The position numbers and the translations under genes are program-made. The notes beneath the pieces were generated by a model, which saw only the letters and a program-made list of their open reading frames with translations, did not search any database and was not told the DNA's origin. DNA of 64,000 nt, taken from IMG/VR virus record IMGVR_UViG_3300029704_000004, one strand, 5' to 3'. Below, one piece after another: positions 610 to 50,421 of the stretch. This DNA is from a virus. Each line of letters begins with the position of its first letter. Within the stretch, counting starts at the first letter, position 1.

Positions 610-619
610 TATAGCCAAT

Positions 620-1382: not shown

Positions 1383-1400
1383 GTTATGAATAAGCTATAT

Positions 1401-4711: not shown

Positions 4712-4970
4712 TTTTAGTAATGAAGATAGTAAAGGTTTTGTAGTAGTTCTTGTTCTTACATTTGTTATTTGTTGCTCTATGGTTATTGGAAAATATTATC
4801 ATACTAAAAATAACAATATTATTGAACAAAATATTGAACTACAAAAACATAATGATAGTCTAAGAATTAAAGTTGATAATTTAGATAGTATTAAAAATGC
4901 AAAAGTTATTGAAGTTAAAGCTCTTGATAATGATAGTACTATTAAGTTGTTCTATCAACTCATTAAGTAA
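4704..4970 (+). CDS. N-terminal TM plus coiled-coil protein (i-spanin- or holin-like)
   Basis: GFVVVLVLTFVICCSMVIG is a hydrophobic helix and the remainder is heptad-like. The next ORF overlaps it in another frame. Confidence 0.45.
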   Translation: MDSFSNEDSKGFVVVLVLTFVICCSMVIGKYYHTKNNNIIEQNIELQKHNDSLRIKVDNLDSIKNAKVIEVKALDNDSTIKLFYQLIK

Positions 4971-7601: not shown

Positions 7602-7603
7602 AT

Positions 7604-10180: not shown

Positions 10181-10188
10181 TATATTTG
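10181..10188 (+). promoter_or_regulatory. possible -7 box abutting repeat copy D
   Basis: TATATTTG is followed by AG rather than the CA seen at the other boxes. It is contiguous with the AGCCGCCCCGTAAAAGG of copy D. Confidence 0.25.
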
Positions 10189-10214
10189 AGAGCCGCCCCG
10201 TAAAAGGAATTACG
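10188..10214 (-). repeat. GC-rich dispersed repeat, copy D (- orientation)
   Basis: The + strand reads GAGAGCCGCCCCGTAAAAGGAATTACG. Intergenic, downstream of the portal terminator. Confidence 0.9.
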
Positions 10215-10487: not shown

Positions 10488-11837
10488 ATGTTTGTATTTC
10501 GTAATACTCTTGGTTTTAAACCTCATACTCGTTTGATGGGTCCACTTGACGGAATTAATCTTGATTTTGGTGGTGGTGGAACTAATGCTCCAGACATCAA
10601 CGGAGGTGATAATAAAGGAGGCAATAAAGACGGTGATGGTACAGACCCTGAACCTCCTAGTAATAAAGACGGTGACGGAGACGGTAAAGACGGCGATGGA
10701 ACTGGTGATGGTGATGGGAAAGATAATCCTGATGATAAAGACAATAAAGGTAATGATACCACACCTTCTACGGGGGGGCTAGAGCCAGGTACTAATGTAG
10801 AGTTTGAAGGTCAAACTTATACAGTAGATGAAAATGGTAATCTCGTAGATAAAGATAATAAAGTTTTCAAAGAAGCTAAAGATGTAAAAGCTTGGATTGA
10901 TTCTCTTCAAGTAGAAGAACCTACTGATGAAATTAATCTTGCTGCTATTCAAAAGGCTCTTGATGTAGAACTTACTGATGAAGATGGTAAGCCTGCTGAA
11001 TTTGAAGATTCTATTGATGGTATCAAATCTTATGTAGATAAGGTTATTGAACTTAAAAACAATGAAGTAGCTCAAGCTGCAGTTAATAAAGTATTTACTG
11101 ATAATCCTATTCTCAAGCAATTTGTAGATTATCTTACTGTAAATAATGGAGACCCTCGTGGTTTTGGTGAACGTTCAGACCGTAGTTCTATTACAGTAGA
11201 TGAAAAGTCTGAGGAACAACAAATTGCTATTATTAAGACTGCTGCTAAAGAATTTGGTAATGCTAGTCTTAATGACAATTATATTAAGTATCTTAAAGAT
11301 TCAGGCGGTCTTTATGATGAAGCTAAACTTCAGTTAGCTAATCTTCAAGCTGCTGACAAACAACGTGACGAAGCTTACGCTAAACAAGCAGAAGCTGAAC
11401 GTCAAAGAGAAGAAGATGAAACTTTAGCTTATTGGAAAGATATTAAAGATGTTGTTACTAATCGTAAGATTGGTAATTATACATTACCTGAAACTCTTGT
11501 TCGCACAGTTAATGGTCAGAAAGTTACTGTTACTCCTAATGACTTTTATGACTATCTTTATCGTCAGACTAAAGATGCTGATGGTGTTATTGCAACAGCT
11601 TATCAAAGAGATTTGGCTGCTAAGTCTGCTGAACAAGAACGTGATGAAGAACTTCTTAGTGCTTGGTTGATGTATACAGGTGGAACTTATGAAGACCTAG
11701 TAAAAATGGCTATTAATGAGGAAAAAGTAAAAACCCTCAAATTAGTGAACAAACAAAGTAAAGGTCGTGGCACTGTACGAATTACTAAACCAGCAAGTGC
11801 TAATCATAAAGCTATTGATGATATTCAATTTAGCTAA
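10488..11837 (+). CDS. scaffold-like head assembly protein with Gly/Asp-rich N-terminus
   Basis: The gene sits between portal and capsid genes. It has a low-complexity GDGxDG N-terminal ~95 aa and a charged coiled coil (QAADKQRDEAYAKQAEAERQREEDE). The function is positional inference. Confidence 0.4.
   Translation: MFVFRNTLGFKPHTRLMGPLDGINLDFGGGGTNAPDINGGDNKGGNKDGDGTDPEPPSNKDGDGDGKDGDGTGDGDGKDNPDDKDNKGNDTTPSTGGLEPGTNVEFEGQTYTVDENGNLVDKDNKVFKEAKDVKAWIDSLQVEEPTDEINLAAIQKALDVELTDEDGKPAEFEDSIDGIKSYVDKVIELKNNEVAQAAVNKVFTDNPILKQFVDYLTVNNGDPRGFGERSDRSSITVDEKSEEQQIAIIKTAAKEFGNASLNDNYIKYLKDSGGLYDEAKLQLANLQAADKQRDEAYAKQAEAERQREEDETLAYWKDIKDVVTNRKIGNYTLPETLVRTVNGQKVTVTPNDFYDYLYRQTKDADGVIATAYQRDLAAKSAEQERDEELLSAWLMYTGGTYEDLVKMAINEEKVKTLKLVNKQSKGRGTVRITKPASANHKAIDDIQFS
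10761..10785 (+). repeat. GC-rich dispersed repeat, copy E (+, G7, one core mismatch)
   Basis: ACACCTTCTACGGGGGGGCTAGAGC, read in frame as STGGLE at the end of the low-complexity N-terminus. Confidence 0.8.
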
Positions 11838-16232: not shown

Positions 16233-16283
16233 GCTGATGATATGTAAAATTCAATAGGTAATAGTTTAGATGGGAATGAAGCT

Positions 16284-16312
16284 CTACATTCCTTTTACGG
16301 GGGGTCTAGAGC
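16284..16312 (+). repeat. GC-rich dispersed repeat, copy F (+, G6) nested in a larger hairpin
   Basis: CTACATTCCTTTTACGGGGGGTCTAGAGC. The outer arms GGGAATG-AA-GCTCTA (16272-16286) pair with TAGAGC-AA-CATTCCC (16307-16321). It lies 25 nt upstream of ATG 16337. Confidence 0.9.
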
Positions 16313-16336
16313 AACATTCCCATTAATTGTTTTGAT

Positions 16337-17218: not shown

Positions 17219-17812
17219 ATGGAAGAAATTAAGGTAACCCGCCCCGTAAAAGAAGCAGTTGATAATGAATCTTCTATTACTGGACAATTTAATAAAGTTG
17301 TAGTTAAACAACTAGAAAGAGATAGTATTGAAGAAATTCATCCAGAAGTACTTTATCTTACTATTCCTTCAGAATGGACTTGTACATATCATCAACTTAT
17401 TAATTATATTGCTGATGTGGGTAAAGGTATTATTGATGATTGTAGTTTTGCTTGTAAAGGTGATGGTAAGAAATTGTTTAATTGTTGGGGATTATTTCAA
17501 AGTGCTTGTGCTGCTTATCAACAATTAGATTATACTAAAGCTAACTTTTATTATAATTATGTAAAGCAGCAACTTGAAGACTACTATAAAAATTTAGGTA
17601 AACCAATTTATAATGGAACTAATTATTATCCGATTACTCCTGATGGTAAGCTTAAAGCTCTTTGTAGTTGTTCAAATCAAAATGTAATATTTAAAGTTGA
17701 CATTGAAACTGGTAAACTTTATCAGAATTATCTAGATAATAAAGATAATGGTGAAGTATTTACTATTAATGATAATGGTCATTTAAATGTTGAATCTGAT
17801 AATAAAGTTTAG
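17219..17812 (+). CDS. Cys-rich hypothetical protein (197 aa)
   Basis: ATG 17219 is the only in-frame ATG, and codons 7-10 (RPVK) are encoded by repeat copy G. Confidence 0.55.
   Translation: MEEIKVTRPVKEAVDNESSITGQFNKVVVKQLERDSIEEIHPEVLYLTIPSEWTCTYHQLINYIADVGKGIIDDCSFACKGDGKKLFNCWGLFQSACAAYQQLDYTKANFYYNYVKQQLEDYYKNLGKPIYNGTNYYPITPDGKLKALCSCSNQNVIFKVDIETGKLYQNYLDNKDNGEVFTINDNGHLNVESDNKV
17236..17255 (-). repeat. GC-rich dispersed repeat, copy G (- orientation)
   Basis: The + strand reads AACCCGCCCCGTAAAAGAAG. It lies 30 nt after stop 17204-17206 and inside the first codons of ORF 17219. Confidence 0.85.
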
Positions 17813-21322: not shown

Positions 21323-21403
21323 ATGAGACAGATAAATTATATTATTATTATTATTCACTGCTCAGCCACTAAGGCTGGGCGTGATTTTCATGTTAGAACT
21401 TAA
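21323..21403 (+). pseudogene. truncated N-terminal remnant of an N-acetylmuramoyl-L-alanine amidase (T7-lysozyme/Amidase_2 type)
   Basis: MRQINYIIIIIHCSATKAGRDFHVRT*. HCSATK is the signature found near the N-terminus of T7 lysozyme (FVHCSATKPS). The ORF stops after 26 codons, and nothing amidase-like follows. Confidence 0.6.
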
Positions 21404-21989: not shown

Positions 21990-22328
21990 ATGAATAGGAA
22001 AGAAACATTAATTTGGTCTATAATCGACAATGTGATTGTAGCATGTGATATTCCTAGAGCTGACGGTACTCATTCTATTACTAGAGAATCTATTGTTAGT
22101 AAATCTAGAGAAGAAAATGTAGTTATGGCTAGAGCTTTAGTAGTTGAACAAATGGTTCATGCAGGTTTTACTATCACTAGTATAGCTTATATTTTAAATA
22201 GAACTGTTCAAGCTACTAGATATCTATTTAAACTGAGTACTGAATTTTATCGAACTTCTAGAGCTTTTAGACTTGCTACTTCTGAAGCAACTCTTATGAA
22301 TAAAGATGTTGAACCTATTTTTGTTTAA
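21990..22328 (+). CDS. DnaA-domain-IV-like HTH DNA-binding protein (112 aa)
   Basis: I prefer ATG 21990 because the track's TTG start at 21945 lies inside the promoter box. SKSREENVVMARALVVEQMVHAGFTITSIAYILNRTVQATRY parallels the DnaA C-terminal pattern [44 protein letters not shown]. Confidence 0.45.
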   Translation: MNRKETLIWSIIDNVIVACDIPRADGTHSITRESIVSKSREENVVMARALVVEQMVHAGFTITSIAYILNRTVQATRYLFKLSTEFYRTSRAFRLATSEATLMNKDVEPIFV

Positions 22329-22389
22329 CTAAAAAATAATTGGAAAACAAAAGTAATGGCATCGAAATAAGTTATAATTATTTTATTAA

Positions 22390-22426
22390 GATGGTAATTG
22401 GAACAAAATCCGATTACCATCTTTTT
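22390..22426 (+). terminator. rho-independent terminator
   Basis: GATGGTAAT-(14 nt)-ATTACCATC followed by T5. Confidence 0.75.
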
Positions 22427-22447
22427 GTTTATATACCAGATTCTGTT

Positions 22448-22455
22448 TATCTTTG
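22448..22455 (+). promoter_or_regulatory. Bacteroidota-type -7 promoter box
   Basis: TATCTTTG followed by CA. A TTTG about 20 nt upstream, inside the preceding terminator's T-run, could serve as the -33 element. Confidence 0.6.
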
Positions 22456-22520
22456 CAACGTACAAAATACTAGTTAATGTACAAATTAATCTTTTTATTA
22501 ACTTAATAATTTAATAAGTC

Positions 22521-23450
22521 ATGGATGATTCTAAAATTTTTATGTTCCCTGATGGTGGAACTAGTAAGACTTCTAACGATGTTAACAGTCTGCTTCCTTT
22601 ACTTATGTGTAATGGAGGTTTTGGTGGTGGTAATTGGATTTGGATAATCTTCTTGTTCTTCCTTTATCCTCTTATGCGTAATGGTGGATTATTTGGTAAC
22701 TTTGGTCAGAATGGTGCTGGTTGTCTTGGTCCTCTTGCTAATATGGTTAATAATAATGATGGACGTGACTTGCTTATGCAAGCTATTAATGGTAACGGTG
22801 CTGCAACTCAAAGATTGGCTACTATGTTTGGAACTAAAGTTGATATGATTCAAGCAGCTATTGCTCAGGTAAACAATGGTATTACCCAAGTAGGTTGTAA
22901 GATTGATTCTTCTACTGGTGCTTTGCTTAATGCTGGTACTCAGAACACTATGACTCTTGCTAATCAGTTGGCTACTTGCTGCTGTAACTTAAAGAGTGCT
23001 ATTACAGAGGGTAATTATCAAAATCAAATTGCTACTATTCAGCAGACTGATGCTATTAAACAAAGTGTCGGTGATGTAGGTAATGCTGTAACTCGTGGAT
23101 TCTCCGATATGGGTTATGCTCTTCGTGACCAGACTTGCAATATTGATAAGTCTATTGATGTAGTTGGTGATAGAATTATTGCTAAACTTGATGCTTCTGA
23201 AAAGTCTGCAATGCAGGATAAGATTAATGCTCTGCAAACTCAGTTGACTACTGAACATCAAAGTGGAGTAATTGCTCAGCAAATTGCTGCTGCTGTAAAT
23301 CCTATTGCTCAAGCTGTTAATGAAATTAAGTGTGCTCAGCCTCAGACTGTAACAGTTCCTTATCAGCCATTCCAGGCAGTACCAAATTGTATAGCTTATC
23401 AATATGGTATGTATAATGGTTGTAATAATCTTAATGGTTTTTGGCTTTAA
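22521..23450 (+). CDS. Gly-rich membrane-anchored, Cys-rich protein of unknown function (309 aa)
   Basis: GGFGGGNWIWIIFLFFLYPLM is a hydrophobic segment. The remainder is Q/A/T-rich with scattered Cys, including a CCC triplet. Confidence 0.6.
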   Translation: MDDSKIFMFPDGGTSKTSNDVNSLLPLLMCNGGFGGGNWIWIIFLFFLYPLMRNGGLFGNFGQNGAGCLGPLANMVNNNDGRDLLMQAINGNGAATQRLATMFGTKVDMIQAAIAQVNNGITQVGCKIDSSTGALLNAGTQNTMTLANQLATCCCNLKSAITEGNYQNQIATIQQTDAIKQSVGDVGNAVTRGFSDMGYALRDQTCNIDKSIDVVGDRIIAKLDASEKSAMQDKINALQTQLTTEHQSGVIAQQIAAAVNPIAQAVNEIKCAQPQTVTVPYQPFQAVPNCIAYQYGMYNGCNNLNGFWL

Positions 23451-23468
23451 ATTATAGGAGGTAATATT

Positions 23469-23783
23469 ATGGCTTTTAATGATTTCATTGGTAATCGTGG
23501 CGGTATACCTTTAGTAGCTGCTACTCAAACGACTGCTGGCAGTGCTACTGCTAATGCTGTTTTTAGTATGCCTAATCATACTTTCAGAGCTATGGGAGTT
23601 GCTGGTATAATGGTAATTAATTTTAATGCAGCTACAACTACTGCAACTGGTTTTGAGATTATGGTTAATAATAACACTCTTCCTCTCTTGGCAAGTAATG
23701 GAGAAGCTCTTACTGCTCTTACAGAAGGTCTTCACATTATAGTATTTGATAAACAAAATAATAAACTTCAACTCATAGTATAA
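23469..23783 (+). CDS. hypothetical protein (104 aa)
   Basis: Clean ORF with a TAATG overlap onto the next gene. Confidence 0.55.
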   Translation: MAFNDFIGNRGGIPLVAATQTTAGSATANAVFSMPNHTFRAMGVAGIMVINFNAATTTATGFEIMVNNNTLPLLASNGEALTALTEGLHIIVFDKQNNKLQLIV

Positions 23784-24256
23784 TGTTTTCAGCTCTCAAT
23801 CAAGGTAGCCGAGTTTATATTTTAAACAAAGCTAATGGAATAGATTTTAAGATTGGAGAAGTTGTTGGGACTACAACACCTGTATTTGCAACTGATGGTA
23901 TTAATACAATGGTTGTAAACTTAAAGGTTAAAGTAGATGGAAGTACTGTAGATTATAATAATATTCCTGCTAACAATAATTCTGTTAGTTATAATAACGG
24001 AAATCTTATTATAGCTGAAAGTAAACAAACTATCCAATCTGAAGTAGAAGCTACTCTGCAACATGCTAACTATGTTATAGAACATATTGAAGATTATAAA
24101 AATCAAGTAGTTCGATGTGAAGAAGTTCTTAAAGAACTTAATCCTCAATTTGCTAAAGACAAAGCACGTGATGAAAGAATAGCAGGTATAGAAAATGAAG
24201 TTGCTGGAATGAAAGGTGATATAGCTAAGATTCTGGCTGCTGTAACTAAACAATAA
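23783..24256 (+). CDS. hypothetical protein (157 aa)
   Basis: Clean ORF with a C-terminal coiled coil. Confidence 0.55.
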   Translation: MFSALNQGSRVYILNKANGIDFKIGEVVGTTTPVFATDGINTMVVNLKVKVDGSTVDYNNIPANNNSVSYNNGNLIIAESKQTIQSEVEATLQHANYVIEHIEDYKNQVVRCEEVLKELNPQFAKDKARDERIAGIENEVAGMKGDIAKILAAVTKQ

Positions 24257-24260
24257 AATT

Positions 24261-24491
24261 ATGATACTTATGGTACAACGTAATATGAATAAGTCTGAGC
24301 TTAAAGAAAAGATTAGACGTATGAAAATGGAACTTCAGGAGTTAGAAGATGCTCTTGATAAGTGTGAAGATAGAGATAATCGCTATGACGAAGAGGAAAA
24401 CTATCGAAGAAATCATGATTATGATAGACGTGAACATGATTATGAAGACAGAGATAGAGAATATGGTCGTGGTCGTTATGGTAGGTATTAA
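24261..24491 (+). CDS. highly charged Arg/Asp/Glu/Tyr-rich small protein (76 aa)
   Basis: The C-terminal half reads DRDNRYDEEENYRRNHDYDRREHDYEDRDREYGRGRYGRY. The start may instead be the internal ATG at 24285. Confidence 0.45.
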   Translation: MILMVQRNMNKSELKEKIRRMKMELQELEDALDKCEDRDNRYDEEENYRRNHDYDRREHDYEDRDREYGRGRYGRY

Positions 24492-24495
24492 TTGA

Positions 24496-24520
24496 AAGCC
24501 GCCCCGTAAAGAGAATGTAG
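24496..24520 (-). repeat. GC-rich dispersed repeat, copy H (left arm of a doublet)
   Basis: The + strand reads AAGCCGCCCCGTAAAGAGAATGTAG and starts 5 nt after stop 24489-24491. Confidence 0.9.
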
Positions 24521-24530
24521 AATTGTATGA

Positions 24531-24554
24531 TTCAATACCTTTTACGGGGCGGTT
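24531..24554 (+). repeat. GC-rich dispersed repeat, copy I (right arm of a doublet)
   Basis: TTCAATACCTTTTACGGGGCGGTT. TTTACGGGGCGG (24541-24552) is the exact reverse complement of CCGCCCCGTAAA (24499-24510). Confidence 0.9.
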
Positions 24555-24569
24555 ATAATAACTAAAGTT

Positions 24570-24995: not shown

Positions 24996-25019
24996 CATTA
25001 ATAATTACTATTCTTTATA

Positions 25020-25063
25020 ATAGCTTTCAAGTTAAGAAATTATCTTAATTTGGAAGCTATTTT
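25020..25063 (+). terminator. rho-independent terminator
   Basis: ATAGCTTTCAA...TTGGAAGCTAT (one G:U pair) with inner TTAAGA/TCTTAA pairing, followed by TTT-AG-TTTTT. Confidence 0.65.
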
Positions 25064-25083: not shown

Positions 25084-25123
25084 CAGAGGTATTAATATTA
25101 TTAATAATCAAATTGTTATAACA

Positions 25124-26842
25124 ATGAGTACAAAACAACTTTATGAAAAAACTTCTGAAGGAATGAAAGAAGTTAGTCCTCTTGTTTCTATAGAGGATAT
25201 TTATTCTAAACTTAGTGATACTCCGCTTGAAGCTCTTGTATCCCTTTTTAATCACGTAAAATGTGAGTGGAAAGGAAGTGTTTCTGATACTCGTAGAACT
25301 GTTCCATTGTTCTTACGTAGAAGTGGTTTATTTATTACTTATAATAATGGAACAAAATATATTACAGAGTTCTTTAGTGCTGGAGCTGACCAAATTACTA
25401 CAGAAGGTTGGGTAAAAGATTCTAATTGGACTTCTGTTCCTGATGAAGATTATATATCTGCTGGAGTTAAACCAGGAGTAGGAAGTATTGGTTATGAACA
25501 ACTTAATGACAACTTGAAGCAGTTATTTAGAGAGAAAGTTAACGTGACTAATTTTCCAGATGATGAAGATATTGCTTCTGTTGATAATATGCTTAAACTT
25601 AAAGATAGAGAAGTTGATGCTGCAAAATTTCAATCTAAAGGTTATGCAATTCTTAGAAAAAATTTACGTTTAGTTAATGGTGTAGTTAAGAATATTCTTA
25701 CTCAAAAAATGGTTAATGAACCCAATACTATTTATGAAATTAGGTATGATTTTGAATTAAATGAACAAGAAATTACTATTCCAGAAGGATGTACTCTTAA
25801 GTTTAATGGAGGAAATTTAACTAATGGTCTTATAATTTCCAATAAAACTAAAATTCAAAATGCACCTTATATTGACAAAACTGCTAATTTAAAAATAACG
25901 GGTAAAGTGTATGATATAAATAATAATGAAATAACTCATTATAAATGGGAAATTATTAATAGAAAATGTAAATTATATACAACTTTAATACCGTGGTGGG
26001 ATTTCTTAAATGATGTAGAAAATGCTTATAGAATTGGTGTTACTGATTTTCATATTGTATTACATATTTCATCTAATAATAATACTAATTTTGAGGTTAC
26101 AGACCCTTATTACTATTCAGATGAGCGTTTTGTGAATAAAATTTTGAAGTATAATTTAAGTACTCCTTGTCTTAAATTACACATAGATGAAGGAAAACCT
26201 TTTGGTTCAGCTCCTTATAATACTGTATCTTATATAGAAAATACAATAAATTATGTAAAAACATTAGTAAGTAAATATAGAGAATTAGGATTAAAATTTG
26301 ATAAATTTTGGGTATCAAATGAACATATTAATGTAACCTGCAACGATGATAATAATTCAGCAGATTTATGGAGAAGTTATCTTATTGATTTAAAAACATG
26401 GTTACAAACAAACTATAATATAAGTTGTTGGGCATCTTTGCAGCAACCTGTATTAGCAATGGCTTCATATAACGATATTAATATATCTGCTAATTTTTAT
26501 CCAAGGATTAGTAGCTTTGATGATAGATATTGTAGTAATGTAGATACATTGAATAATCTTGTATCTCAAATTAATACTTATATAGCATCTTGCCCTAATA
26601 ATATTTCTTATGTAATATCAGAGTGCGGTTGTAACGGAATATATAAATCATTAAGATTACCTGAAGCTTATTCTCTTAAAGGTCAAAAGCATCTTTATAT
26701 ATTTGATAAATTTTATAGTGCCATAGTTGAAGCACTTAATCAATGTCAAATTGATGAGTGGGTAATATGGTATGGAGATGCACCTAGTGGTTTAAAAGGT
26801 GCTCAAGATTTAGTTTATAACATTTTAAGGAAATTATTATGA
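25124..26842 (+). CDS. tailspike-like protein with C-terminal clan GH-A-like glycosidase signature
   Basis: KGYAILRKN...NILTQKMVNEPNTIYEIRYDFELNEQEITIPEGCTLKFNGGNL is a tailspike beta-helix entry motif. WVSNEH (Glu at 26321-26323) and VISECG (Glu at 26621-26623) lie 100 residues apart, like the acid/base and nucleophile motifs of TIM-barrel glycosidases. Confidence 0.5.
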   Translation: MSTKQLYEKTSEGMKEVSPLVSIEDIYSKLSDTPLEALVSLFNHVKCEWKGSVSDTRRTVPLFLRRSGLFITYNNGTKYITEFFSAGADQITTEGWVKDSNWTSVPDEDYISAGVKPGVGSIGYEQLNDNLKQLFREKVNVTNFPDDEDIASVDNMLKLKDREVDAAKFQSKGYAILRKNLRLVNGVVKNILTQKMVNEPNTIYEIRYDFELNEQEITIPEGCTLKFNGGNLTNGLIISNKTKIQNAPYIDKTANLKITGKVYDINNNEITHYKWEIINRKCKLYTTLIPWWDFLNDVENAYRIGVTDFHIVLHISSNNNTNFEVTDPYYYSDERFVNKILKYNLSTPCLKLHIDEGKPFGSAPYNTVSYIENTINYVKTLVSKYRELGLKFDKFWVSNEHINVTCNDDNNSADLWRSYLIDLKTWLQTNYNISCWASLQQPVLAMASYNDINISANFYPRISSFDDRYCSNVDTLNNLVSQINTYIASCPNNISYVISECGCNGIYKSLRLPEAYSLKGQKHLYIFDKFYSAIVEALNQCQIDEWVIWYGDAPSGLKGAQDLVYNILRKLL

Positions 26843-28149
26843 TAAAAAATATTAATTTATTCAGTAAGCCAGATGCAAGAAATAAGTATGGTATTATAGC
26901 GCAAATTGCGGTACCTCTACCTATTTCCATAGAACTTACTTATTACGTGAATAAAAATAGTAGTAATCCTACTCTCATTAAAGAGGAATATTCTGTTGTG
27001 CCACATCTTAACGGATGGAATCTTAATTATCTTAATTATACACCTAAAAAAGAAGATTACTCTATACATTATCATACAGAAGATGATACAGAACCAAATA
27101 TTTATTTATATTTTGGTAATGATATAACAGGTAAAAGTAATAATCAGTATTTTTATATATTATACAACTGTAAAAATAATATTATTAACAATACTTATAA
27201 TGTTACATTGAAATATGCCGATAGTTATTCCGCCGATATAGCATTAGTTTATCCTATTGGAAAAGAGTTTTGGGCTTCACAATATTCTGGAGATATACCT
27301 TTATCTATTGTAAAGGACAATTTTATAGCGAACGAAAAACTAAATATTGTTAATTCTACTACTATTGAAACATTACTTAATAATAAGAGTAATTTAAATG
27401 GTATTTATTTGCCTACTAATCAAGTAGTTTGTTTTAAGAAAGCTTTAAGAAATGACCATAATTTTCAAAATGTAAAAATTTATATTGTTAATGATAGTTA
27501 CAGGATTGAACGTGATTTGTTAGAAATAATAAAAAATGATATTACAGCTGTGAGTATTGTAGGATTAAATATTAAACCTAAAATAGAAGTCTATATATCA
27601 GATTCAGATGTTTATATAAAATCTCTTGGTTATATAATGGTGTCTATTATAATGTCTCACGCAGATTATAATATTGTTAACGATATACCCGAAGGTATTA
27701 CTCAAGTTAAGATACTTAATAGAGAAAAGGTAACAGTAGAAGAACTTTTGACTTATAGGTCACTTTTAAGATATACTTTTTTACCTTATTTGTGTGACAA
27801 TAATCTACTATATAGAGAGCACAATTATATTAAAAGTGGAACTTTTGCAGATAAACCTACTAAAGCTCCTATAGGTTTTGCTTACTTTTGTACTGATAAA
27901 CAAACAGGCGAAGGTGCAACTGATGGTATAACGATTTATTATAAAGGAAATGATATTTGGGTTGATGCTTTAGGTAGAGTGGTAGATAATAATAATTATC
28001 CTATTATTATAAAAGGTACTACGATTCAAAGACCTACTCTTACATCTACTAATGATGGTTTTGAATATTATGATACTACTCTCAAAAAGAAAATCCTTTG
28101 GAATGGTACTGCTTGGGTAAATCTTGATGGTACAGAATTAGCACAATAA
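26839..28149 (+). CDS. tail fibre / receptor-binding protein
   Basis: ATGA overlap with the upstream gene. Two tandem C-terminal tip motifs are present: GFAYFCTDKQTGEGATDGITIYYKGNDIWVDALGR (27874-27978) and GFEYYDTTLKKKILWNGTAWVNLDG (28057-28131). Confidence 0.5.
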   Translation: MIKNINLFSKPDARNKYGIIAQIAVPLPISIELTYYVNKNSSNPTLIKEEYSVVPHLNGWNLNYLNYTPKKEDYSIHYHTEDDTEPNIYLYFGNDITGKSNNQYFYILYNCKNNIINNTYNVTLKYADSYSADIALVYPIGKEFWASQYSGDIPLSIVKDNFIANEKLNIVNSTTIETLLNNKSNLNGIYLPTNQVVCFKKALRNDHNFQNVKIYIVNDSYRIERDLLEIIKNDITAVSIVGLNIKPKIEVYISDSDVYIKSLGYIMVSIIMSHADYNIVNDIPEGITQVKILNREKVTVEELLTYRSLLRYTFLPYLCDNNLLYREHNYIKSGTFADKPTKAPIGFAYFCTDKQTGEGATDGITIYYKGNDIWVDALGRVVDNNNYPIIIKGTTIQRPTLTSTNDGFEYYDTTLKKKILWNGTAWVNLDGTELAQ

Positions 28150-28151
28150 TT

Positions 28152-28478
28152 ATGGAATTAATAAATCAAATCCTTCAAACTATTATTAATAGTTTTGATG
28201 TTGCTTATTGTTTAGTAGTTAATTTACTGACTTATATTCTTATAAGTAGTATTATTAGTGTAATACATAAGCAAATTACTAGAGTTTGGAAACGTATAAT
28301 ACTATGTGTTAGTATTATTATAGTTAGTATTGCTTATATTAATTTTAGCAGTATTGATATAAGAGTTCTAATTAATAGTATTATACTTGCCCCAATAAGT
28401 TGGAGCTGGGTATTTAAACCTATTGCTAAACGAATGAATTGGGATTATAAAGATTTTGATAACAAATTAAATAATTAA
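28152..28478 (+). CDS. three-TM small membrane protein (holin-like topology)
   Basis: Three hydrophobic segments and a charged C-terminus (NWDYKDFDNKLNN). The function is inferred from topology only. Confidence 0.4.
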   Translation: MELINQILQTIINSFDVAYCLVVNLLTYILISSIISVIHKQITRVWKRIILCVSIIIVSIAYINFSSIDIRVLINSIILAPISWSWVFKPIAKRMNWDYKDFDNKLNN

Positions 28479-28835: not shown

Positions 28836-28867
28836 CTCTGTAACTACTAGATACGTTTGTGTCCGTG

Positions 28868-28900
28868 CCCCTAATGCTAGTAATAGTGTTAGGGGTTTTT
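28868..28900 (+). terminator. rho-independent terminator
   Basis: CCCCTAA-(14 nt)-TTAGGGG followed by T5, 33 nt after stop 28835. Confidence 0.75.
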
Positions 28901-29289: not shown

Positions 29290-29310
29290 GATGTAGTTAA
29301 TATACTTATT

Positions 29311-29336
29311 CTAGCCGCCCCGTAAAGGATATGTAG
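29311..29336 (-). repeat. GC-rich dispersed repeat, copy J (left arm of a doublet)
   Basis: The + strand reads CTAGCCGCCCCGTAAAGGATATGTAG and starts 22 nt after stop 29289. Confidence 0.9.
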
Positions 29337-29378: not shown

Positions 29379-29402
29379 TTACATACCTTTTACGGGGCGG
29401 CT
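29379..29402 (+). repeat. GC-rich dispersed repeat, copy K (right arm of a doublet)
   Basis: TTACATACCTTTTACGGGGCGGCT. TTTACGGGGCGGCT (29389-29402) is the exact reverse complement of AGCCGCCCCGTAAA (29313-29326). Pairing extends through GG/CC and TATGTA/TACATA. Confidence 0.9.
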
Positions 29403-29430
29403 TTAAACGTTTAATGATTTACATATTGAT

Positions 29431-30120
29431 ATGAGTAGTATTGCACAATTAGTTAGCGAAATAGCTCATAGTTATGGTCAACCTAATAATCATTCTCTAA
29501 GAGAAAAGATTAGAAGTGTAATAATTCATACTAGAGCTGAAATTATTAGAAGAAGTTATGAAAATCATAACTATGTAGATAAACTACTTACTCAAAGATT
29601 TAAAGTTACTTTGACTAGTGTAGTTGATGGAGATTTTGAACTTCCAGAAGAACTTCAAGACATTCCAATAGATAAAATTAAAAGAACTAATCAAAAGGTT
29701 CCAAGACCTATTAGACTTACTAATAATCTTCCTTTTGATAGAGTTAGTACAGCAGGTTATCGTACCAATAGAGAACTTCCTTATATTAAAGAAACTACTG
29801 CTAGATTTCGTGGAAGTGTTCCAGGTTTATGTGGGGCTATTGCTTATGATTATATTAATGAATATATTTATTTATTTCCTCCTGCTAACGATAAGCCTAT
29901 TAATATAGGTGCTATAGTAATAGAATCAAGTTTTGAACAACCAAATCAAATTGCTGATATTAATGGTGAAATTACATTCGAGAATAAAATCTATGATGAT
30001 AACGAATGGTTACTTAGTGAAGATATGGTTGGTCAAATTAAAGATATAATATTTAAAAGGGATTTACTAAATCAAAAACATGAAACTGATGAAATCCCTA
30101 GTACAATAAAATATGATTAA
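29431..30120 (+). CDS. tail-operon protein of unknown function (229 aa)
   Basis: First long gene of the 29.4-40.7 kb operon. No motif recognised. Confidence 0.6.
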   Translation: MSSIAQLVSEIAHSYGQPNNHSLREKIRSVIIHTRAEIIRRSYENHNYVDKLLTQRFKVTLTSVVDGDFELPEELQDIPIDKIKRTNQKVPRPIRLTNNLPFDRVSTAGYRTNRELPYIKETTARFRGSVPGLCGAIAYDYINEYIYLFPPANDKPINIGAIVIESSFEQPNQIADINGEITFENKIYDDNEWLLSEDMVGQIKDIIFKRDLLNQKHETDEIPSTIKYD

Positions 30121-35236: not shown

Positions 35237-37129
35237 ATGGGCTTACAAAGATTAATTAATGTAGGGGTTTCTAATATATATTATGAAGAAAATGGAAATA
35301 TCCGTTTAACTTATTATATAGATGGAGATGCTATGTCCGGAGCTGGACAAGTTAATATTAAAATAGAACTTGATAATGCTCAAGTTGCAAATAGTAATGT
35401 TGATGCATCATTTCCAGGTAGAACTTCCCTAAATACAACTGTTGGTTTGAGTTCTAGAGTTCCTGGTTCTACACATAATATTAAAATTACTGGTACAAAA
35501 AATGGAGTTGTTAGAACTGCTAGTAAAAGTAATACTTTTCCAGTTCAATCAGATTTAGATAAAATAGATATTAATTTTACTCATAGAGAAACTATCCCAG
35601 AAAAGATATTAACTGATACTTTTTCTTTCATTAATATTGGTAATTTCGGTGGAGTAAGATTTGCTATTGATGAAGATGTAACTGATAGTAGTACTAAATA
35701 CGAAACAAACTCTATACAGACTATACCAAATAATGATAATAAAAGCCACGTTATTAATTATAGGTATAAATGTGGAGATTTAGATGCTACTAAAAGTTAT
35801 ACTGTTGACCATAGTACAAGTGAACCTGAACATAGAGTTCCTTATGTTTATCCAAATCCTGTATTAACTCAAGTAGATAACAACCATTACGAAATAAGTA
35901 TTCATGATTTTACTAACGATGGTTCTAGATACGGAGTTACTGATACTAGTAAAATTAAAGTTCGAGTAACTTATAACAATAAATATATAGATTTTGATTA
36001 TGCCGATTTTACAGGTAATAAATTAAATGTAGAATTAAATTATAGTACTAAAATTACTTGTTTTGTTTATAATACTGAATACAGTACTGATAAATCAGAA
36101 GATGTAATTCTTAAATTTGTATATAAGATTCCTGAAGTTAAGATGTTAAAACCGATTATTAGTTGGAAATATATGAGAACTGGTAGACCAGGAGATAAAA
36201 GAAGAAAAGCAGGAATAATAATTACTGGTAATTTTGATGCTATTAAAAATTTGAATATTAAAGAATTTCCTAATATCGAATCTGATGGTACATTATATAC
36301 AATTTATACTAAAGACGGAAGTATACCAAATATAGATAATACAATAGAAAAATTAACAGAAGAGAAAACAATATTAGATACTAATAATGCTATTTATTAT
36401 TTTAGAAATGTATTTGTTTATAATGATAAAAAACGAAATCCTACATATTCAGATTCTTTAAGATTTGTATATAATGTTAGCGGAGAAGGAAATCCATTTT
36501 ATTTTGATTACGAAAAACCAAGTTTGGAATCTCCCAGTAATATTTGTAGTTATCTTGATGTTATTTATAATAATGATTATAATAATTCTAAGTCTCTAGA
36601 ATCAATTAATTATATTCTTAATTATTTTGATAATAGATATTCTTTAAATGCTAAAAATATTTATAACGTAGCTGAAGATGGTTTAAGACGTAGATATGCT
36701 GGTTACTATCTTGATGTTTACACAGATGAAACTCAAGCTATAAATCTTAAACTTAGTGATGGTTCTAATGATACTGATGAAAACAATAGAGATACTTTCA
36801 ATCATTATAATGATTATAAGTTTGCTAAGTTTGACAAAGGTAGTTGGAACTTTAATTACTTTAGAAATGGTTTTAATAGAGGTAATACTGAATTATCTGA
36901 AACTGAACTTGTAAGAGCTTGTAATTATATTTATTATAATCCAAGTACTAAGCAAAATGAAGTTCATGTTATTACTGAAGAAGATTTAAAGAAATCTCCA
37001 TTATATAAATCCGATAATAGAAGTTTAATTTATGGAAAGTATATTGTTACTAGATTTATATTTAATAATGATGATGCTGCTCATAGATTTAAACTTGAAA
37101 ATATAACATTTAATATTCAACCATATTAA
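35237..37129 (+). CDS. tail-associated structural protein (630 aa)
   Basis: Tightly coupled to its neighbours and beta-rich. Function is inferred from context. Confidence 0.55.
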   Translation: MGLQRLINVGVSNIYYEENGNIRLTYYIDGDAMSGAGQVNIKIELDNAQVANSNVDASFPGRTSLNTTVGLSSRVPGSTHNIKITGTKNGVVRTASKSNTFPVQSDLDKIDINFTHRETIPEKILTDTFSFINIGNFGGVRFAIDEDVTDSSTKYETNSIQTIPNNDNKSHVINYRYKCGDLDATKSYTVDHSTSEPEHRVPYVYPNPVLTQVDNNHYEISIHDFTNDGSRYGVTDTSKIKVRVTYNNKYIDFDYADFTGNKLNVELNYSTKITCFVYNTEYSTDKSEDVILKFVYKIPEVKMLKPIISWKYMRTGRPGDKRRKAGIIITGNFDAIKNLNIKEFPNIESDGTLYTIYTKDGSIPNIDNTIEKLTEEKTILDTNNAIYYFRNVFVYNDKKRNPTYSDSLRFVYNVSGEGNPFYFDYEKPSLESPSNICSYLDVIYNNDYNNSKSLESINYILNYFDNRYSLNAKNIYNVAEDGLRRRYAGYYLDVYTDETQAINLKLSDGSNDTDENNRDTFNHYNDYKFAKFDKGSWNFNYFRNGFNRGNTELSETELVRACNYIYYNPSTKQNEVHVITEEDLKKSPLYKSDNRSLIYGKYIVTRFIFNNDDAAHRFKLENITFNIQPY

Positions 37130-37131
37130 TT

Positions 37132-40100
37132 ATGACAAAGAAGTGTAATAGATTAAGAGGTGAACGACCTAAAGCATTTTGGGGTGCTTTAGTTGGTGGT
37201 GCTATGAATTTAATTGGTAGTGCTATTAGTTCTAAATCTCAAGCTAGAGCTATCAGAAGACAAATTGAAGCTCAGAAAGAAGCTGCTCGAACTCAATTAG
37301 AGTTAGCTAATAATAGTAATCTTGCTAGTACGTTGAATAGTTATGTAACTGCTACAAGAAGTTATAATGATGAAGATGATTATAATTTAAAGTATCGTCT
37401 TGGTGGTAATAAACGTTTAGAAAGTAATAGAATTTATATTACTGATGGAGGCAATGCTACTAAGATTGGAAATGATACATACCTTTTACGGGGGGGTTCT
37501 CACGAGCAAACCAATGAGACTGGTCAAACAGGTATTGGTATCAATGTTGGTGGTAACGAAGTTGAAGCTGAGGGAGGTGAAGTTGCTCAGAAGAAGAATG
37601 GTGCTCTAAGAATCTTTAGTGCTCAACCTATTCTTGGTAATGGTATGAGTCCTGCTCAAGCTATTCTTAGAGGTTATAATAAAGATAAAGTATTTAATGC
37701 TCAACAAGCATTTAAGAGAAGAAATGGTCTTAAAGATGATGGAGGTAAAGCAAAATGGGGTATTGGATGGCTTGACAGTTTATTTGGAAACGATAATCCT
37801 AAAAAGAAAACTGTTCATTTTTATAAATCTCAAGCTACAGGTAAAGTATTTAAAACTAGACAAGAAGCTATAGCCGAAAATAATAAATATAAAACTAATT
37901 TAGGTTATAGAAGAACTATCAATAGAGAACGAGAATTTGAAGCTGCTAAAAACAAAAGCGGTAATGAACGAATACCTTATATTAAAGAAAAAGAAATTAA
38001 ATTAAGTAAGGCAGGTAAATTAACAGGAATAAAACTTACTACTAATCAATTAGATAGTATTGCTAAATATGCAAATAAAGTAGGACTTCCTATTAAAACT
38101 GCTTTAGGATTGGTTGGACAAGAAAGTGCTTTTGGAAACTATTTTGGTTATGCAAATAATGCTAAATTTCTAAATGAATATCATAAACAAGGAGAAATGA
38201 ATAGAGATATTTTTGGTATTCCTGCATATAATATAGTAAATTACGAAAGATTACTTCCTAATAAAATACCAACATTGGTAGATGATAATGCCATAAATGA
38301 TAAATACGCAAAAAGAGGTATAAATAAATTTGGATATTCTGCTGTAATCAATGGTGATGAATTAGATAAACTTAAAGTTCAACATGAAGCTTATCCAGGT
38401 CTTGCTAAAAAACGTGCAAAATTTTGGAAAGATATTAAAGTTCCAACTTTGGAATTGGCATTTAAAGCTTATAAAGACCATCCGAATTTATATAATGCTG
38501 GTAATCCTAATCAACAAAATTTAGTTAATAACAAAGCTAATGATGTTTGGGGAAGTCCAGAAATTCAAAAATGGTATAGAACATCTCCTTATGTAAAACA
38601 TCGTCTTGGTGGTCGTTGTAAACTTAGAAATGACGGTTTAACTTCTAAAGATAGAGGTTCTTCTAAACGTCTTTATCCTTCGGTATCATCTAAAGATTTT
38701 GCAGGTGGTGGTAGAAGTTATCCTATTCCAACTAAAGCTGATGCTGTTGATGCTTTAAGACTTGCTGGTCTTCATGGAAGAAGTGATGTTAGAAGTAAAG
38801 TATATAGTAAATATCCTAGTCTTCGTCCTAAAGCTAGAATTGGTGGCAGTTGGAAAGCTCCAGTTTATAATACTAATAAATATAGAGTTTCCAATCGTAT
38901 GAGAAGACAAATAGCAACTTGGGAAGGTTCTGATTTTGCAGGTCAAAATAGAAGATTCAAAGGTGATGCTATTGGTGCTAAAGAAAGAGAACTTAGACGA
39001 ATAATGGGAAGAACTTATAATTATCTTAATGATAATCAAAGAGATTCTCTTAATAGTATTTACTATAATAGTCGAGTTGATACTTTCAAAAATGCTTTTG
39101 GTAAATGGTTTAGAAATTTAAATAGTGCAGTAGATAGAGGTGATGAACGTGCGTTCAATAATAGTCTTGCTGGTATTAGACAAAGTATGACTGTTGGAGA
39201 AAATAGAAAAAGTATGAGTGGTTTAGCTAAACGTAGAGCTTGGGAAAGAAATTGGTTTGGCAATCCTATTCCAATGGATAGTAATGAAACTAAAGCTATT
39301 CTTAATCAACAAGCTGAAGCTAAAATGGTTCAACCTACAGATAATACTAGAGTTGTTATTCAGCCTGAGTATATTGAAATTCCTACTCCTGTCGGTCATG
39401 GTGTTGTTCCAGTAGATAATCCAGACCCTAATTTATTGCAAGGTAATATTAAAGATAATTTAATTAATATGGGAAATAAATTTAGATTAGGACAAAGATG
39501 TGGTGGAAGTACTAGAATGCGTAAAGCCTTAGGTGGTGAAAGCCGCCCCGTAAAAGGCATGAGACGTAAACTTGCTTGGGGTGATGTAACTTATCCTTAT
39601 CGTAGAAATAATAATTTTGATTATTGGGATATTATAGACCAAGAACAAAAAATTAATGATAAAGGTGGTATAAGTCCTTGGACAACATCTAATAAATACG
39701 ATGTTAAAGTTCCTTATGTAATTACTAAGAGTACTCCTACTATTCCTTATACAAGTCAAGTTAGTACTCCAACTTCTGGAGTTTCTGAAAATAAGACTAT
39801 TCCTACTTATACTGGTAATAAGTCGGGTATGATAATTCGTGATGCTGATTGGTATGGTCTTGGAGCTGATTTAGTTTCTAGTATTGGAGGAAGTATTCTT
39901 GGTTTGGGTGCTTATAAAAACTTAGATTTTGATTATAATCTTCCAAACTTTGTAGAGGAAAGTCCAGTTGCTCTTAATACTACTTATCATAATGAAGCTC
40001 AAAAGTCTAATGTTGAACGTAATCGTTTAAATAGTAGAAATAGTATTCTTAGAAATACTATGAGTGGTAGTACTGCTGTTGGTCGTATGCAAGGTGTTGA

Positions 40101-40680
40101 TACTAACGCTTTATATCAACTTAATCAACTTGCTGATGAAAAAACTAATAAAGAAACTGAACTTATGAATCAGAATCTTTTGAACGAACAACAAGTTAGA
40201 GCTAGAAACGCTGCTGCTAGAAATCAGTATTATAATACTGTTGCTAGTATTAAGAATGCTGCTATTCAAGCTAAGAATGAAGCTGAACTTGCTAAGGGAC
40301 AAATTCTTAGTGGAAGTCTTCAAGGTATTGGAAATAGTTTCCAAAACTTTATTAGTCAAGGTCGTCAAAATTATGATGATACTCAAGCTATGCTTATGGG
40401 AGTTGCAGCTTCTGATTATGCTACTCCATCTAGATTACTTGAACTTGGTGTTGATGTTGGTGATGATGCTGCTCTTGCAGGTATTTATCGTTCAGCTATG
40501 AATATTCCAAATCCAGGTGCTAGACCTAAGAGAGAAGACTATTCAGATAATACTGAATATAGTTATGCTCTTACTAGATGGGAGAATCAGAACAAAGCAT
40601 ACCAAAGAAGAAATAGTTATGCTGATTTAATTAAAGGTAGAATGAGTAAAAAGAATCTTATTAAATACGGTATTATTTAA
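37132..40680 (+). CDS. virion-associated protein with two lysozyme-like (SLT-like and GH24-like) segments
   Basis: LGLVGQESAFGNY (Glu at 38122-38124) resembles the lytic-transglycosylase E-S motif. IATWEGS...NDNQRDSLNSIYYNSRVDTF resembles the phage-lysozyme EG...Q-x-x-L-x-S-x-x-(F/Y)N pattern. The C-terminus is a long Q/N/A-rich coiled coil. Confidence 0.5.
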   Translation: MTKKCNRLRGERPKAFWGALVGGAMNLIGSAISSKSQARAIRRQIEAQKEAARTQLELANNSNLASTLNSYVTATRSYNDEDDYNLKYRLGGNKRLESNRIYITDGGNATKIGNDTYLLRGGSHEQTNETGQTGIGINVGGNEVEAEGGEVAQKKNGALRIFSAQPILGNGMSPAQAILRGYNKDKVFNAQQAFKRRNGLKDDGGKAKWGIGWLDSLFGNDNPKKKTVHFYKSQATGKVFKTRQEAIAENNKYKTNLGYRRTINREREFEAAKNKSGNERIPYIKEKEIKLSKAGKLTGIKLTTNQLDSIAKYANKVGLPIKTALGLVGQESAFGNYFGYANNAKFLNEYHKQGEMNRDIFGIPAYNIVNYERLLPNKIPTLVDDNAINDKYAKRGINKFGYSAVINGDELDKLKVQHEAYPGLAKKRAKFWKDIKVPTLELAFKAYKDHPNLYNAGNPNQQNLVNNKANDVWGSPEIQKWYRTSPYVKHRLGGRCKLRNDGLTSKDRGSSKRLYPSVSSKDFAGGGRSYPIPTKADAVDALRLAGLHGRSDVRSKVYSKYPSLRPKARIGGSWKAPVYNTNKYRVSNRMRRQIATWEGSDFAGQNRRFKGDAIGAKERELRRIMGRTYNYLNDNQRDSLNSIYYNSRVDTFKNAFGKWFRNLNSAVDRGDERAFNNSLAGIRQSMTVGENRKSMSGLAKRRAWERNWFGNPIPMDSNETKAILNQQAEAKMVQPTDNTRVVIQPEYIEIPTPVGHGVVPVDNPDPNLLQGNIKDNLINMGNKFRLGQRCGGSTRMRKALGGESRPVKGMRRKLAWGDVTYPYRRNNNFDYWDIIDQEQKINDKGGISPWTTSNKYDVKVPYVITKSTPTIPYTSQVSTPTSGVSENKTIPTYTGNKSGMIIRDADWYGLGADLVSSIGGSILGLGAYKNLDFDYNLPNFVEESPVALNTTYHNEAQKSNVERNRLNSRNSILRNTMSGSTAVGRMQGVDTNALYQLNQLADEKTNKETELMNQNLLNEQQVRARNAAARNQYYNTVASIKNAAIQAKNEAELAKGQILSGSLQGIGNSFQNFISQGRQNYDDTQAMLMGVAASDYATPSRLLELGVDVGDDAALAGIYRSAMNIPNPGARPKREDYSDNTEYSYALTRWENQNKAYQRRNSYADLIKGRMSKKNLIKYGII
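37475..37500 (+). repeat. GC-rich dispersed repeat, copy L (+, G7), intragenic
   Basis: ATACATACCTTTTACGGGGGGGTTCT, read as TYLLRGGS. Confidence 0.9.
39538..39561 (-). repeat. GC-rich dispersed repeat, copy M (-), intragenic
   Basis: The + strand reads GAAAGCCGCCCCGTAAAAGGCATG, read as ESRPVKGM. Confidence 0.9.
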
Positions 40681-43331: not shown

Positions 43332-43332
43332 T

Positions 43333-50391: not shown

Positions 50392-50421
50392 AAAATATTA
50401 AATAACTTAATATAGATAGTT

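Follow-up and report, generated by a model that had tools for sequence, protein, structure and literature searches.

A GC-rich inverted doublet in a crAss-like phage consists of two copies of a dispersed, strand-specific DNA word with lineage dialects

DNA uptake sequences of the Pasteurellaceae (uptake signal sequences, USS) and Neisseriaceae (DUS) are short over-represented words that occur on both strands, within genes as well as between them. They are described as more evenly spaced than random, as differing between lineages in the manner of dialects and as sometimes forming close inverted hairpin pairs behind genes. Repetitive extragenic palindromic (REP) units are palindromic, extragenic, polymorphic in presence and dependent on a REP-associated tyrosine transposase (RAYT). 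The sites ssiA and ssiB of RSF1010, read by RepB', and the ColE2 origin, read by Rep, are sequence- and strand-specific priming sites recognised by their own protein. Here we describe a DNA word of crAss-like phages, which are among the most abundant human gut viruses and whose replication and persistence are poorly understood. The starting point was a GC-rich inverted doublet at 24,496–24,554 of IMG/VR virus record IMGVR_UViG_3300029704_000004, a stretch of 64,000 nucleotides that we call the window. The original prediction had regarded this doublet as a hairpin resembling a REPIN, the inverted REP doublet, or the ends of a miniature inverted-repeat transposable element (MITE). We find that it belongs to a dispersed repeat family extending across at least three subfamilies of the Intestiviridae.

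The doublet occupies the 78-nt gap between the stop codon of an open reading frame (ORF) of 76 aa (24491) and the start codon of a DUF7841 gene (ATG 24570). As predicted, CCGCCCCGTAAA at 24499–24510 and TTTACGGGGCGG at 24541–24552 are exact reverse complements with 30 nt between them, and both the coordinates and the complementarity of these GC-rich 12-bp arms were borne out. They were also rightly taken for two repeat units in inverted orientation, but the coordinates slightly understate the unit, since both arms extend beyond 12 nt to units of ~26 nt. The two units lie tail to tail with profile matches 12 nt apart, and the flanks, GAAAG and TTATA, show no target-site duplication.

24494–24519, plus strand: unit copy, 5' arm of the doublet, GAAAGCCGCCCCGTAAAGAGAATGTA; 23.0 bits; begins 2 nt past the stop of ORF 24261–24491
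24532–24557, minus strand: unit copy, 3' arm of the doublet, TATAACCGCCCCGTAAAAGGTATTGA; 26.0 bits; ends 12 nt before ATG 24570
24498–24553, plus strand: hairpin or cruciform of both arms with a 13-bp closing stem, an imperfect internal stem and a small apical loop

Fold prediction, suggested earlier as a check, gave a strong hairpin for RNA (-29.7 kcal/mol, z -5.14, none of 200 shuffles being equally stable) as well as for DNA (-16.6 kcal/mol, z -5.5). Only two perfect inverted repeats of 12 bp that have 8 or more G/C and no more than 80 nt of spacer exist in the window, at 24499/24541 and 29315/29389, and 200 composition-preserving shuffles produced none. An intrinsic terminator combines a GC-rich hairpin with a run of T or U. 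The hairpin is present here and the T-run is absent, as had been noted before: TTATAATAAC directly follows the 3' arm, and the doublet is missing from the list of the terminator scan. Terminator-like sites between 16 and 32 kb numbered 11, compared to 4 expected. Canonical hairpins with T-runs were seen on the plus strand at 21359–21381, 22388–22423, 25019–25061 and 28867–28896, indicating that the phage uses canonical terminators and that the motif doublets are distinct from these.

Allowing up to two mismatches, the 12-mer matches 18 sites in the window, nine on each strand, where 0.21 are expected. Alignment of the copies yields a longer GC-rich unit, (CT)AG-CCSCCCCGTAAA-AGGWATGTA, of ~21–27 bp. 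An nhmmer profile built from this unit retrieved exactly those 18 copies with scores of at least 16.5 bits, the next matches scoring 4.2 bits or less. Fourteen copies are single and the other four form two tight doublets. Depending on the gene call, 8–9 of the 18 are internal to ORFs, in all three frames, and 9–10 fall into the non-coding ~5% of the window. Three giant ORFs of 1182, 2338 and 4469 aa contain six copies, again in all three frames and without interruption of the reading frame, which argues for a nucleic-acid signal and not for a protein motif. Intron or intein boundaries in the giant ORFs were considered too and rejected, given the uninterrupted ORFs and the presence of copies in every frame. 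Each giant ORF (37114–40680, 43297–50349 and 50416–63831) contains one opposed copy followed by one co-oriented copy, at distances of 2.1, 2.3 and 3.5 kb. The choice between CCG and CCC at motif position 3 tracks the sense strand in both gene modules, so this position is simply degenerate.

The unit by itself is not palindromic and forms an internal stem of 2–4 bp at most. Eleven of the 14 single copies fold no better than shuffled sequences (z -1.3 to +1.5) and the one at 63849 is borderline (z -2.2). Only the single copies at 4984 and 16294 lie in hairpins, which are built with non-repeat flanks. These long hairpins (4937–5014, z -3.8, and 16270–16323, z -5.2) closely precede start codons and carry the copy in the loop, so that transcripts or single-stranded DNA would present the unit at the hairpin apex. 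The window gave no match to Rfam at gathering thresholds and none in a tRNA scan.

The window represents the late-gene arm of a crAss-like phage. Its aligned parts are ~98% identical to the uncultured phage cr8_1 (Intestiviridae, Obtuvirinae, Fohxhuevirus), and the major capsid proteins of both are 100% identical. We searched further genomes by de novo k-mer enrichment, defining copies by a simple regular expression. Every complete Intestiviridae genome examined contained the word in 17–31 copies. The Fohxhuevirus dialect was found among GenBank phages in cr8_1 only, which has 27 unique copies genome-wide, including its oppositely transcribed replication module. Other genomes use other dialects, all of them dispersed on both strands:

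cr271_1 (Hacihdavirus), 17 copies: tAGC-TCCCCCGTAGAAGA-rATG
cr3_1 (Crudevirinae), 29 copies: TTGyTCCCCCGTAGAGGAA
p-crAssphage (the prototypical crAssphage, Carjivirus communis), 31 copies: tAGAC-YCCCCGTRGAGGATGGA
crAss002 (cultured; Churivirinae), 9 copies in the first 50 kb: TTCCCCCGTARAGG

The word was not found in the first 50 kb of crAss001 (Steigviridae). Positions 6000–50000 of that genome (L251) contain a different over-represented word, CTCCTTCTGGAG / TCCAGAAGGA, with CTTCTGGA occurring 19 times compared to 0.9 expected. This could be a counterpart of the word described here or result from a repeated peptide.

Where gene-internal sites are alignable across genera or subfamilies, the orthologous fraction varies between 3 of 12 and 6 of 7, the remainder having turned over. 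Orthologous sites in helicase, primase, UDG and giant virion proteins (24–65% amino-acid identity) carry the dialect of their own genome, including the flanks of the word. The primase site, for example, reads CTATCCCCCCCGTAAAAGGTATG in cr8_1 and TAGACCCCCCGTAGAGGATGGA in p-crAssphage. Sites thus change in concert and one dialect is kept per genome. Such behaviour of dispersed sites implies either that ~20 bp are recognised by a co-evolving factor or that copies are homogenised among each other. Literature searches for literal motif strings (six variants and their complements) returned only unrelated primers, and the motif goes unmentioned in papers dealing with crAss promoters, with crAss genomics or with the phage-plasmid lifestyle. 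As a genome-wide DNA word in crAss-like phages it appears to be undescribed so far.

We then analyzed strand, orientation and spacing in four complete genomes and in the window. Of 105 copies in the four genomes 34 are intergenic, an approximately 4-fold enrichment over the ~8 expected, and 71 are genic. Forty-five share the direction of local transcription (co-oriented) and 60 run against it (opposed), so the signal is independent of the direction of transcription; the mild excess of opposed copies can be explained by the stop codon which the co-oriented form creates in one frame. We considered whether GGAGGATG of the p-crAssphage dialect might act like a Shine-Dalgarno sequence and rejected this because orientation does not depend on transcription. 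The signal is therefore strand-specific and acts at the DNA level. Orientation switches in 76 of 104 neighboring pairs (p 1.4e-6). Pairs closer than 1 kb are inverted without exception (18/18), and wider pairs still alternate in 55 of 83 cases (p 0.002).

Copies on the same strand follow each other evenly at ~6–8 kb. The coefficient of variation (CV) of the gaps in the window is 0.21 for plus-strand copies (p 0.00025) and 0.29 for minus-strand copies (p 0.001). For the genomes it ranges from 0.31 to 0.55 per strand, where copies placed at random give ~0.9; in six of the eight strand sets p does not exceed 0.004. Very short as well as very long same-strand gaps are lacking and the maximum gaps are shorter than random. 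Two interleaved regular series produce alternation by themselves, and both even spacing per strand and alternating orientation are properties of the word. Without the copies at 24499 and 24541 the plus series would have a gap of 12.1 kb and the minus series one of 13.1 kb; the doublet lies midway.

The orientation data bear on a role in transcription. T7-group promoters are likewise words of ~20–23 bp with ~17 copies per genome that change with the specificity of a phage protein, and the ~20-bp lineage dialects recall them. A site at which a phage polymerase or transcription regulator acts, as promoter or operator, would also fit the intergenic enrichment and the position of some doublets upstream of genes similar to RepL or helix-turn-helix (HTH) proteins. 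T7 promoters, however, are all co-oriented, intergenic and placed upstream of transcription units, whereas half of the copies described here run against all local genes, two thirds lie within ORFs, and a scan with sigma-70-type models revealed no enrichment. Furthermore, the middle and late promoters of phi14:2 are of the host sigma type and nearly all sense, and its early transcripts made by the virion RNA polymerase (vRNAP) share no common motif. We therefore consider a promoter or operator function very unlikely.

The remaining copies of the window are located as follows:

619–644, plus strand: unit copy, 14 nt past the stop of a RepL/HTH-like ORF ending at 609
1398–1420, minus strand: unit copy, intergenic; G7/G8 length polymorphism in relatives
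4975–5000, minus strand: unit copy at the tip of a local hairpin (z -3.8), with an ATG at ~5003 following after 8 nt; kept in a relative of ~70% identity; ORF-internal if a longer ATG-started reading in the same frame (4897–5253) holds
10188–10211, plus strand: unit copy, intergenic, downstream of an 816-aa ORF (7586–10033) that itself precedes the capsid gene
10758–10783, minus strand: unit copy, variant GTAGA, in ORF 10488–11837; decayed in cr8_1 and L094, kept in L091 (70% identity)
16285–16310, minus strand: unit copy at the tip of a strong local hairpin (z -5.2); an ATG follows after 31 nt
17235–17255, plus strand: unit copy, codons 7–10 of ORF 17219–17812
29310–29335, plus strand: unit copy, 5' arm of the second tight doublet
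29380–29406, minus strand: unit copy, 3' arm of the second doublet; the gene for tail ring protein 2 (29431–30120) starts with its ATG ~30 nt further on
37476–37501, minus strand: unit copy in the 1182-aa ORF, encodes YLLRGGSHE; kept in many relatives down to ~74% identity
39537–39561, plus strand: unit copy in the 1182-aa ORF, encodes SRPVKG
46954–46977, minus strand: unit copy in the 2338-aa ORF
49262–49287, plus strand: unit copy in the 2338-aa ORF; orthologous site in p-crAssphage
53189–53214, minus strand: unit copy in the 4469-aa ORF, encodes LYGGA; cr271_1, cr3_1 and p-crAssphage have orthologous sites in their respective dialects
56733–56753, plus strand: unit copy in the 4469-aa ORF, encodes NRPVK; orthologous site in cr271_1
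63843–63869, plus strand: unit copy, 17 nt past the stop of the 4469-aa ORF; the cr271_1 equivalent lies 6 nt past the stop of its giant ORF

The 816-aa ORF is syntenic with the portal gene of cr8_1. Directly behind the copy at 1398–1420 we noticed a GC-rich structured segment, 1421–1465 (GCGATAGCGGAGGGGACGCAAGTCCCCGAAGCGATACC), with a core hairpin GGGGAC-GCAA-GTCCCC upstream of ORF 1493–1990. It is variable in relatives, with a G-run expansion in L046 and 7 or 8 nt in the G-run of the adjacent motif.

Close relatives retain these sites. In cr8_1 17 of the 18 are kept and the doublet is present with two substitutions in the spacer. In public viral contigs of 91–99% identity every covered site of the 18 is present, the doublet included. 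At the doublet L012 and L075 show an 11-nt deletion of the spacer and C-to-T changes in one arm and no other difference. Relatives of ~66–74% identity still possess the copies at 4984, 10767, 37485 and 63849; those at 53198 and 56736 are missing in distant relatives through substitution or a 6-nt indel. A per-position conservation profile of loci selected by the motif was set aside, being biased by the choice of loci. In cr271_1, which belongs to the sister genus, neither the 76-aa gene nor the doublet is present, and the DUF7841 homologue overlaps the upstream gene. The doublet site is thus specific to the Fohxhuevirus lineage, and cr271_1 offers no clean empty site because the neighboring gene is also missing and the genes overlap.

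These data allowed us to judge the proposal of a non-autonomous element, in which a RAYT or transposase would move the doublet in its hairpin form and single copies would be remnants. The likeness to REP units and REPINs is evident: a GC-rich unit forms inverted doublets in an intergenic gap that are able to fold into a hairpin. The pair 624...1418 even brackets an entire ORF of 174 aa in the manner of terminal repeats. A word of 12–20 nt is unlikely to arise by repeated point mutation, which would make a copy-and-paste origin in the past plausible, and the joint absence of doublet and 76-aa gene from the sister genus fits as well. None of the four characters of REP units was found, however. 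The unit is not a self-folding palindrome. It is not confined to extragenic positions, given the genic copies described above, which make up about half in the window. Doublets replicating and singles decaying would be expected of REPINs, but singles predominate, are conserved in cr8_1 and are partly orthologous across subfamilies. Neither a RAYT nor a Y1/HUH transposase was found in ten window ORFs adjoining copies (Pfam, PHROGs), and no RAYT or transposase domain in nine cr8_1 proteins, including a 56-aa protein annotated as 'transposase'. As to MITEs, close pairs of either polarity exist, which leaves no fixed outer end, and the doublet at 24.5 kb lacks a target-site duplication. Presence or absence as a block, which the original prediction had advised looking for in relatives, was not observed at any of the 18 sites at 91–99% identity; conservation of the unit without such indel polymorphism, the outcome it had named as speaking against mobility, is what we found among the close relatives. 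A 15-mer scan of 185,579 bacterial species genomes gave, among the matches listed, single ones in unrelated taxa, as by chance, and no repeat family of a host. Even spacing per strand is also unexpected for selfish insertions. A transposon with ORF 858–1382 as cargo or transposase was rejected, as this ORF has no Pfam or PHROG match and pair polarity is variable. The REPIN/MITE view is therefore largely refuted and we give it hardly any chance.

Two other differences to cr8_1 were seen around the doublet. Segments 22000–24120 and ~25100–28150 gave no megablast alignment to cr8_1 despite flanks of 98% identity; they carry ORFs of 572 and 436 aa where cr8_1 has a single 775-aa 'virion structural protein'. 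They look like a swapped tail-fibre or receptor-binding module. The 76-aa ORF (24261–24491) is highly charged and intact in the window. Its equivalent in cr8_1 (L001, 6140–6370) has one additional A in an A-run (cttaaaagaaaag versus cttaaagaaaag), and two short CDSs are annotated there, one of which bears the probably spurious name 'proline utilization transcription activator'.

The close pairs comprise 10 convergent and 8 divergent arrangements. By our own rough estimate ~2 pairs closer than 130 nt are expected; eight were found, seven of them convergent, intergenic and with AT-rich spacers. The doublet at 24.5 kb belongs to this group. A convergent doublet of cr271_1, 31907/31992, lies ~33 nt before a gene start (32026). 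At three loci of the clade the arms of tail-to-tail doublets are complementary at the degenerate position (CCG/CGG), contrary to the preference of single copies, and in L101 both arms have changed, to CCC/GGG. Complementarity of the arms is less consistent in head-to-head doublets. There is some evidence from these alignments that pairing of the arms, or identity of the half-sites, is maintained in tail-to-tail doublets.

Such pairing could point to a function in RNA. The hairpin may act in the late polycistronic mRNA as a barrier to 3'-exonucleases, as an RNase III site or as a terminator without T-tract and thereby set the expression of the flanking genes, single copies being a separate matter. 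Since both arms lie within one late mRNA, an RNA hairpin of ~-30 kcal/mol necessarily forms at 24.5 kb, and its stability, the complementary arms and the intergenic position of tight doublets, with one arm 7–25 nt after a stop codon and the other 17–31 nt before a start codon, are consistent with this explanation. So are the two single copies at the apex of strong hairpins shortly before start codons, and pairs of bacterial uptake sequences have been discussed together with terminators. It leaves unexplained, however, the 71 genic copies among 105, the lack of orientation bias and the spacing on the antisense strand, and no T-run is present. Pairing is also not consistently preserved, as a G-to-A change in L012 produces an A-C mismatch, and the GTAAA/GTAGA difference between the arms of a set of more distant doublets would give an A-C mismatch in one transcript orientation. 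An argument from RNA wobble, by which C-to-T in the 5' arm would lead to a G-U pair, was dropped since the same position changes in the 3' arm to an A-C mismatch. The RNA hairpin at 24.5 kb may serve as a 3' barrier or in mRNA stability or processing, which we regard as secondary; it cannot be the function of the entire word family, and an element acting primarily on the RNA level appears rather unlikely.

Several tight doublets are found near genes resembling replication genes. Three of the six in cr8_1 and p-crAssphage are located within 550 nt upstream of RepL/HTH-like genes. In p-crAssphage (L248/L249) the tight convergent doublets are 22901–22938, 28077–28183 and 95745–95875; two of them lie upstream of its two RepL genes and have long AT-rich spacers with short repeats. 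The p-crAssphage doublets look like origins. A preprint places the origin of p-crAssphage predicted by Ori-Finder in one intergenic region (PMC10983915), and the doublet 95745–95875, one of the three near RepL/HTH-like genes, is located within that region. The window itself contains a gene of this kind:

1–609, plus strand: RepL / winged-helix-like ORF, Pfam RepL E 9e-5; its 5' end runs off the window

Its paralogue in cr8_1 is gp01, which has a tight doublet 245 nt upstream. The RepL-like protein is one candidate reader of the unit. Iterative searches with jackhmmer linked RepL-like paralogues within genomes only, not between them.

Our preferred reading, which we hold tentatively, is that the 54-bp hairpin consists of two inverted tail-to-tail copies of a genome-wide strand-specific cis-element that serves as recognition site of a phage protein, probably in replication. 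The word would be read by a phage-encoded sequence-specific DNA-binding or DNA-processing protein co-evolving with it. The process served would advance along each strand and require a signal at intervals of a few kilobases. Most plausibly it is replication, with the copies acting as strand-specific sites of priming, re-initiation or loading. Tight inverted doublets with AT-rich spacers could then be two-sided, origin-like sites for both strands at once, and the doublet at 24.5 kb might supply both strand series midway through an otherwise 12–13-kb gap. Replication is favored by circumstantial evidence, namely the periodicity per strand, the AT-rich spacers of doublets and the adjacency to RepL genes and the predicted origin. 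The ssi pair of RSF1010, which is inverted on opposite strands beside an AT-rich region, would resemble the tight doublets. The ssi and ColE2 sites differ in that they are present once or twice per origin, the ssi type forming hairpins, while the phage word has 17–31 dispersed copies that mostly lack them. A more general version is possible but improbable on balance: Intestiviridae genomes would be punctuated by a ~20-bp word every 6–8 kb per strand, read by a co-evolving protein for replication priming, re-initiation or other strand-wise maintenance, with doublets as bidirectional origin-like sites.

A number of observations weigh against a replication site. Most single units have no hairpin potential, unlike known single-strand initiation signals, and DnaG-type primases normally read trinucleotides. 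The plus-strand copies of cr271_1 (n=6) are not evenly spaced (p 0.36). The association with RepL is only marginal (p ~0.06 by our estimate) if doublets are assumed to be intergenic anyway, and the 24.5-kb doublet is not next to a RepL-like gene and is absent from the sister genus, as is the 76-aa gene. No trans-acting protein was identified, RepL-like proteins being recognisable in two genomes only, and Pfam leaves the primase and several other replication proteins unclassified. Relatives retrieved by motif search are biased towards the motif; the unbiased set comprises cr8_1 and four other annotated complete genomes. Finally, spacing and alternation fit nuclease control, nicking or spread of the motif by biased recombination equally well.

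Nuclease control would resemble the action of Chi. Like Chi and the FtsK-orienting polar sequences (KOPS), the word is strand-specific and its use would depend on orientation and density and not on local genes. An oriented word could make a helicase-nuclease of host or phage stop degradation and load a recombinase, so that both orientations at intervals would protect any broken end; its even spacing and independence of transcription suit this function, and these phages encode RecT, an exonuclease, a Gam-like inhibitor and a RecD/PIF1-like SF1 helicase. Known Chi sites are 5–8 nt long and abundant in the host genome, and KOPS are of similar length; both are shared with the host genome and read by host machines. 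The phage word instead constrains ~20 nt in dialects specific to phage lineages, and no bacterial genome with multiple copies was among the matches listed in the scan. Moreover, a Gam-like inhibitor would render a Chi signal for a host nuclease unnecessary. We regard a Chi-like role as unlikely.

The word could also direct a phage nickase, such that virion DNA is nicked at fixed positions on both strands. Fixed nicks have been described in phage T5 and in phiKMV-like phages, HNH and PD-(D/E)XK nucleases are encoded, and an asymmetric ~20-bp word on both strands that co-evolves with the phage would suit a nickase. Convergent doublets only 27–120 bp apart, however, would bring nicks on opposite strands very close and risk double-strand breaks, which makes this explanation quite unlikely. 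A related idea of a genome terminus or nick, derived from the cr8_1 record ending in a copy, was abandoned because the end is only a 55-nt overlap of a circular assembly.

Alternatively, the word may be of no use to the single phage and accumulate by molecular drive or as a recombination 'linker'. Segments bearing the word would be preferentially exchanged or converted between co-infecting phages, comparable to the biased exchange proposed as the origin of bacterial DNA uptake sequences. Occurrence on both strands, even spacing, inverted pairs after genes and genic copies are shared with uptake sequences as these are described, and related genomes are mosaic. Mosaic breakpoints at ~24.1, 25.1 and 28.1 kb, which are imprecise estimates, do not coincide with copies, though, and concerted change of dialects at orthologous sites would still require a specific recogniser. 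To our knowledge no uptake-like step exists for phage DNA. Uptake sequences belong to bacterial chromosomes, have hundreds to thousands of copies and are read by a competence receptor, whereas here a lytic-type phage carries 17–31 copies with ~20 bp constrained, so the likeness is architectural only. We consider molecular drive of this kind an improbable explanation. Overall, the closest architecture is that of bacterial uptake sequences or Chi, and the closest dialect behavior that of phage promoters.

For the annotation of AT-rich crAss genomes our results are a warning that GC-rich inverted repeats should not be taken for terminators or mobile elements by default. The word can be used as a genome signature for phage classification. 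With 31 evenly spaced, conserved copies in prototypical crAssphage it also provides a concrete, testable handle on crAss biology: it predicts a sequence-specific phage protein and defines sites at which origins, primers, nicks and binding can be mapped, and such work is feasible in cultured crAss002 and in the reported culture system of Carjivirus communis. If the word does serve replication as proposed, DNA replication of these phages would be organised in a way that has no described counterpart in phages.

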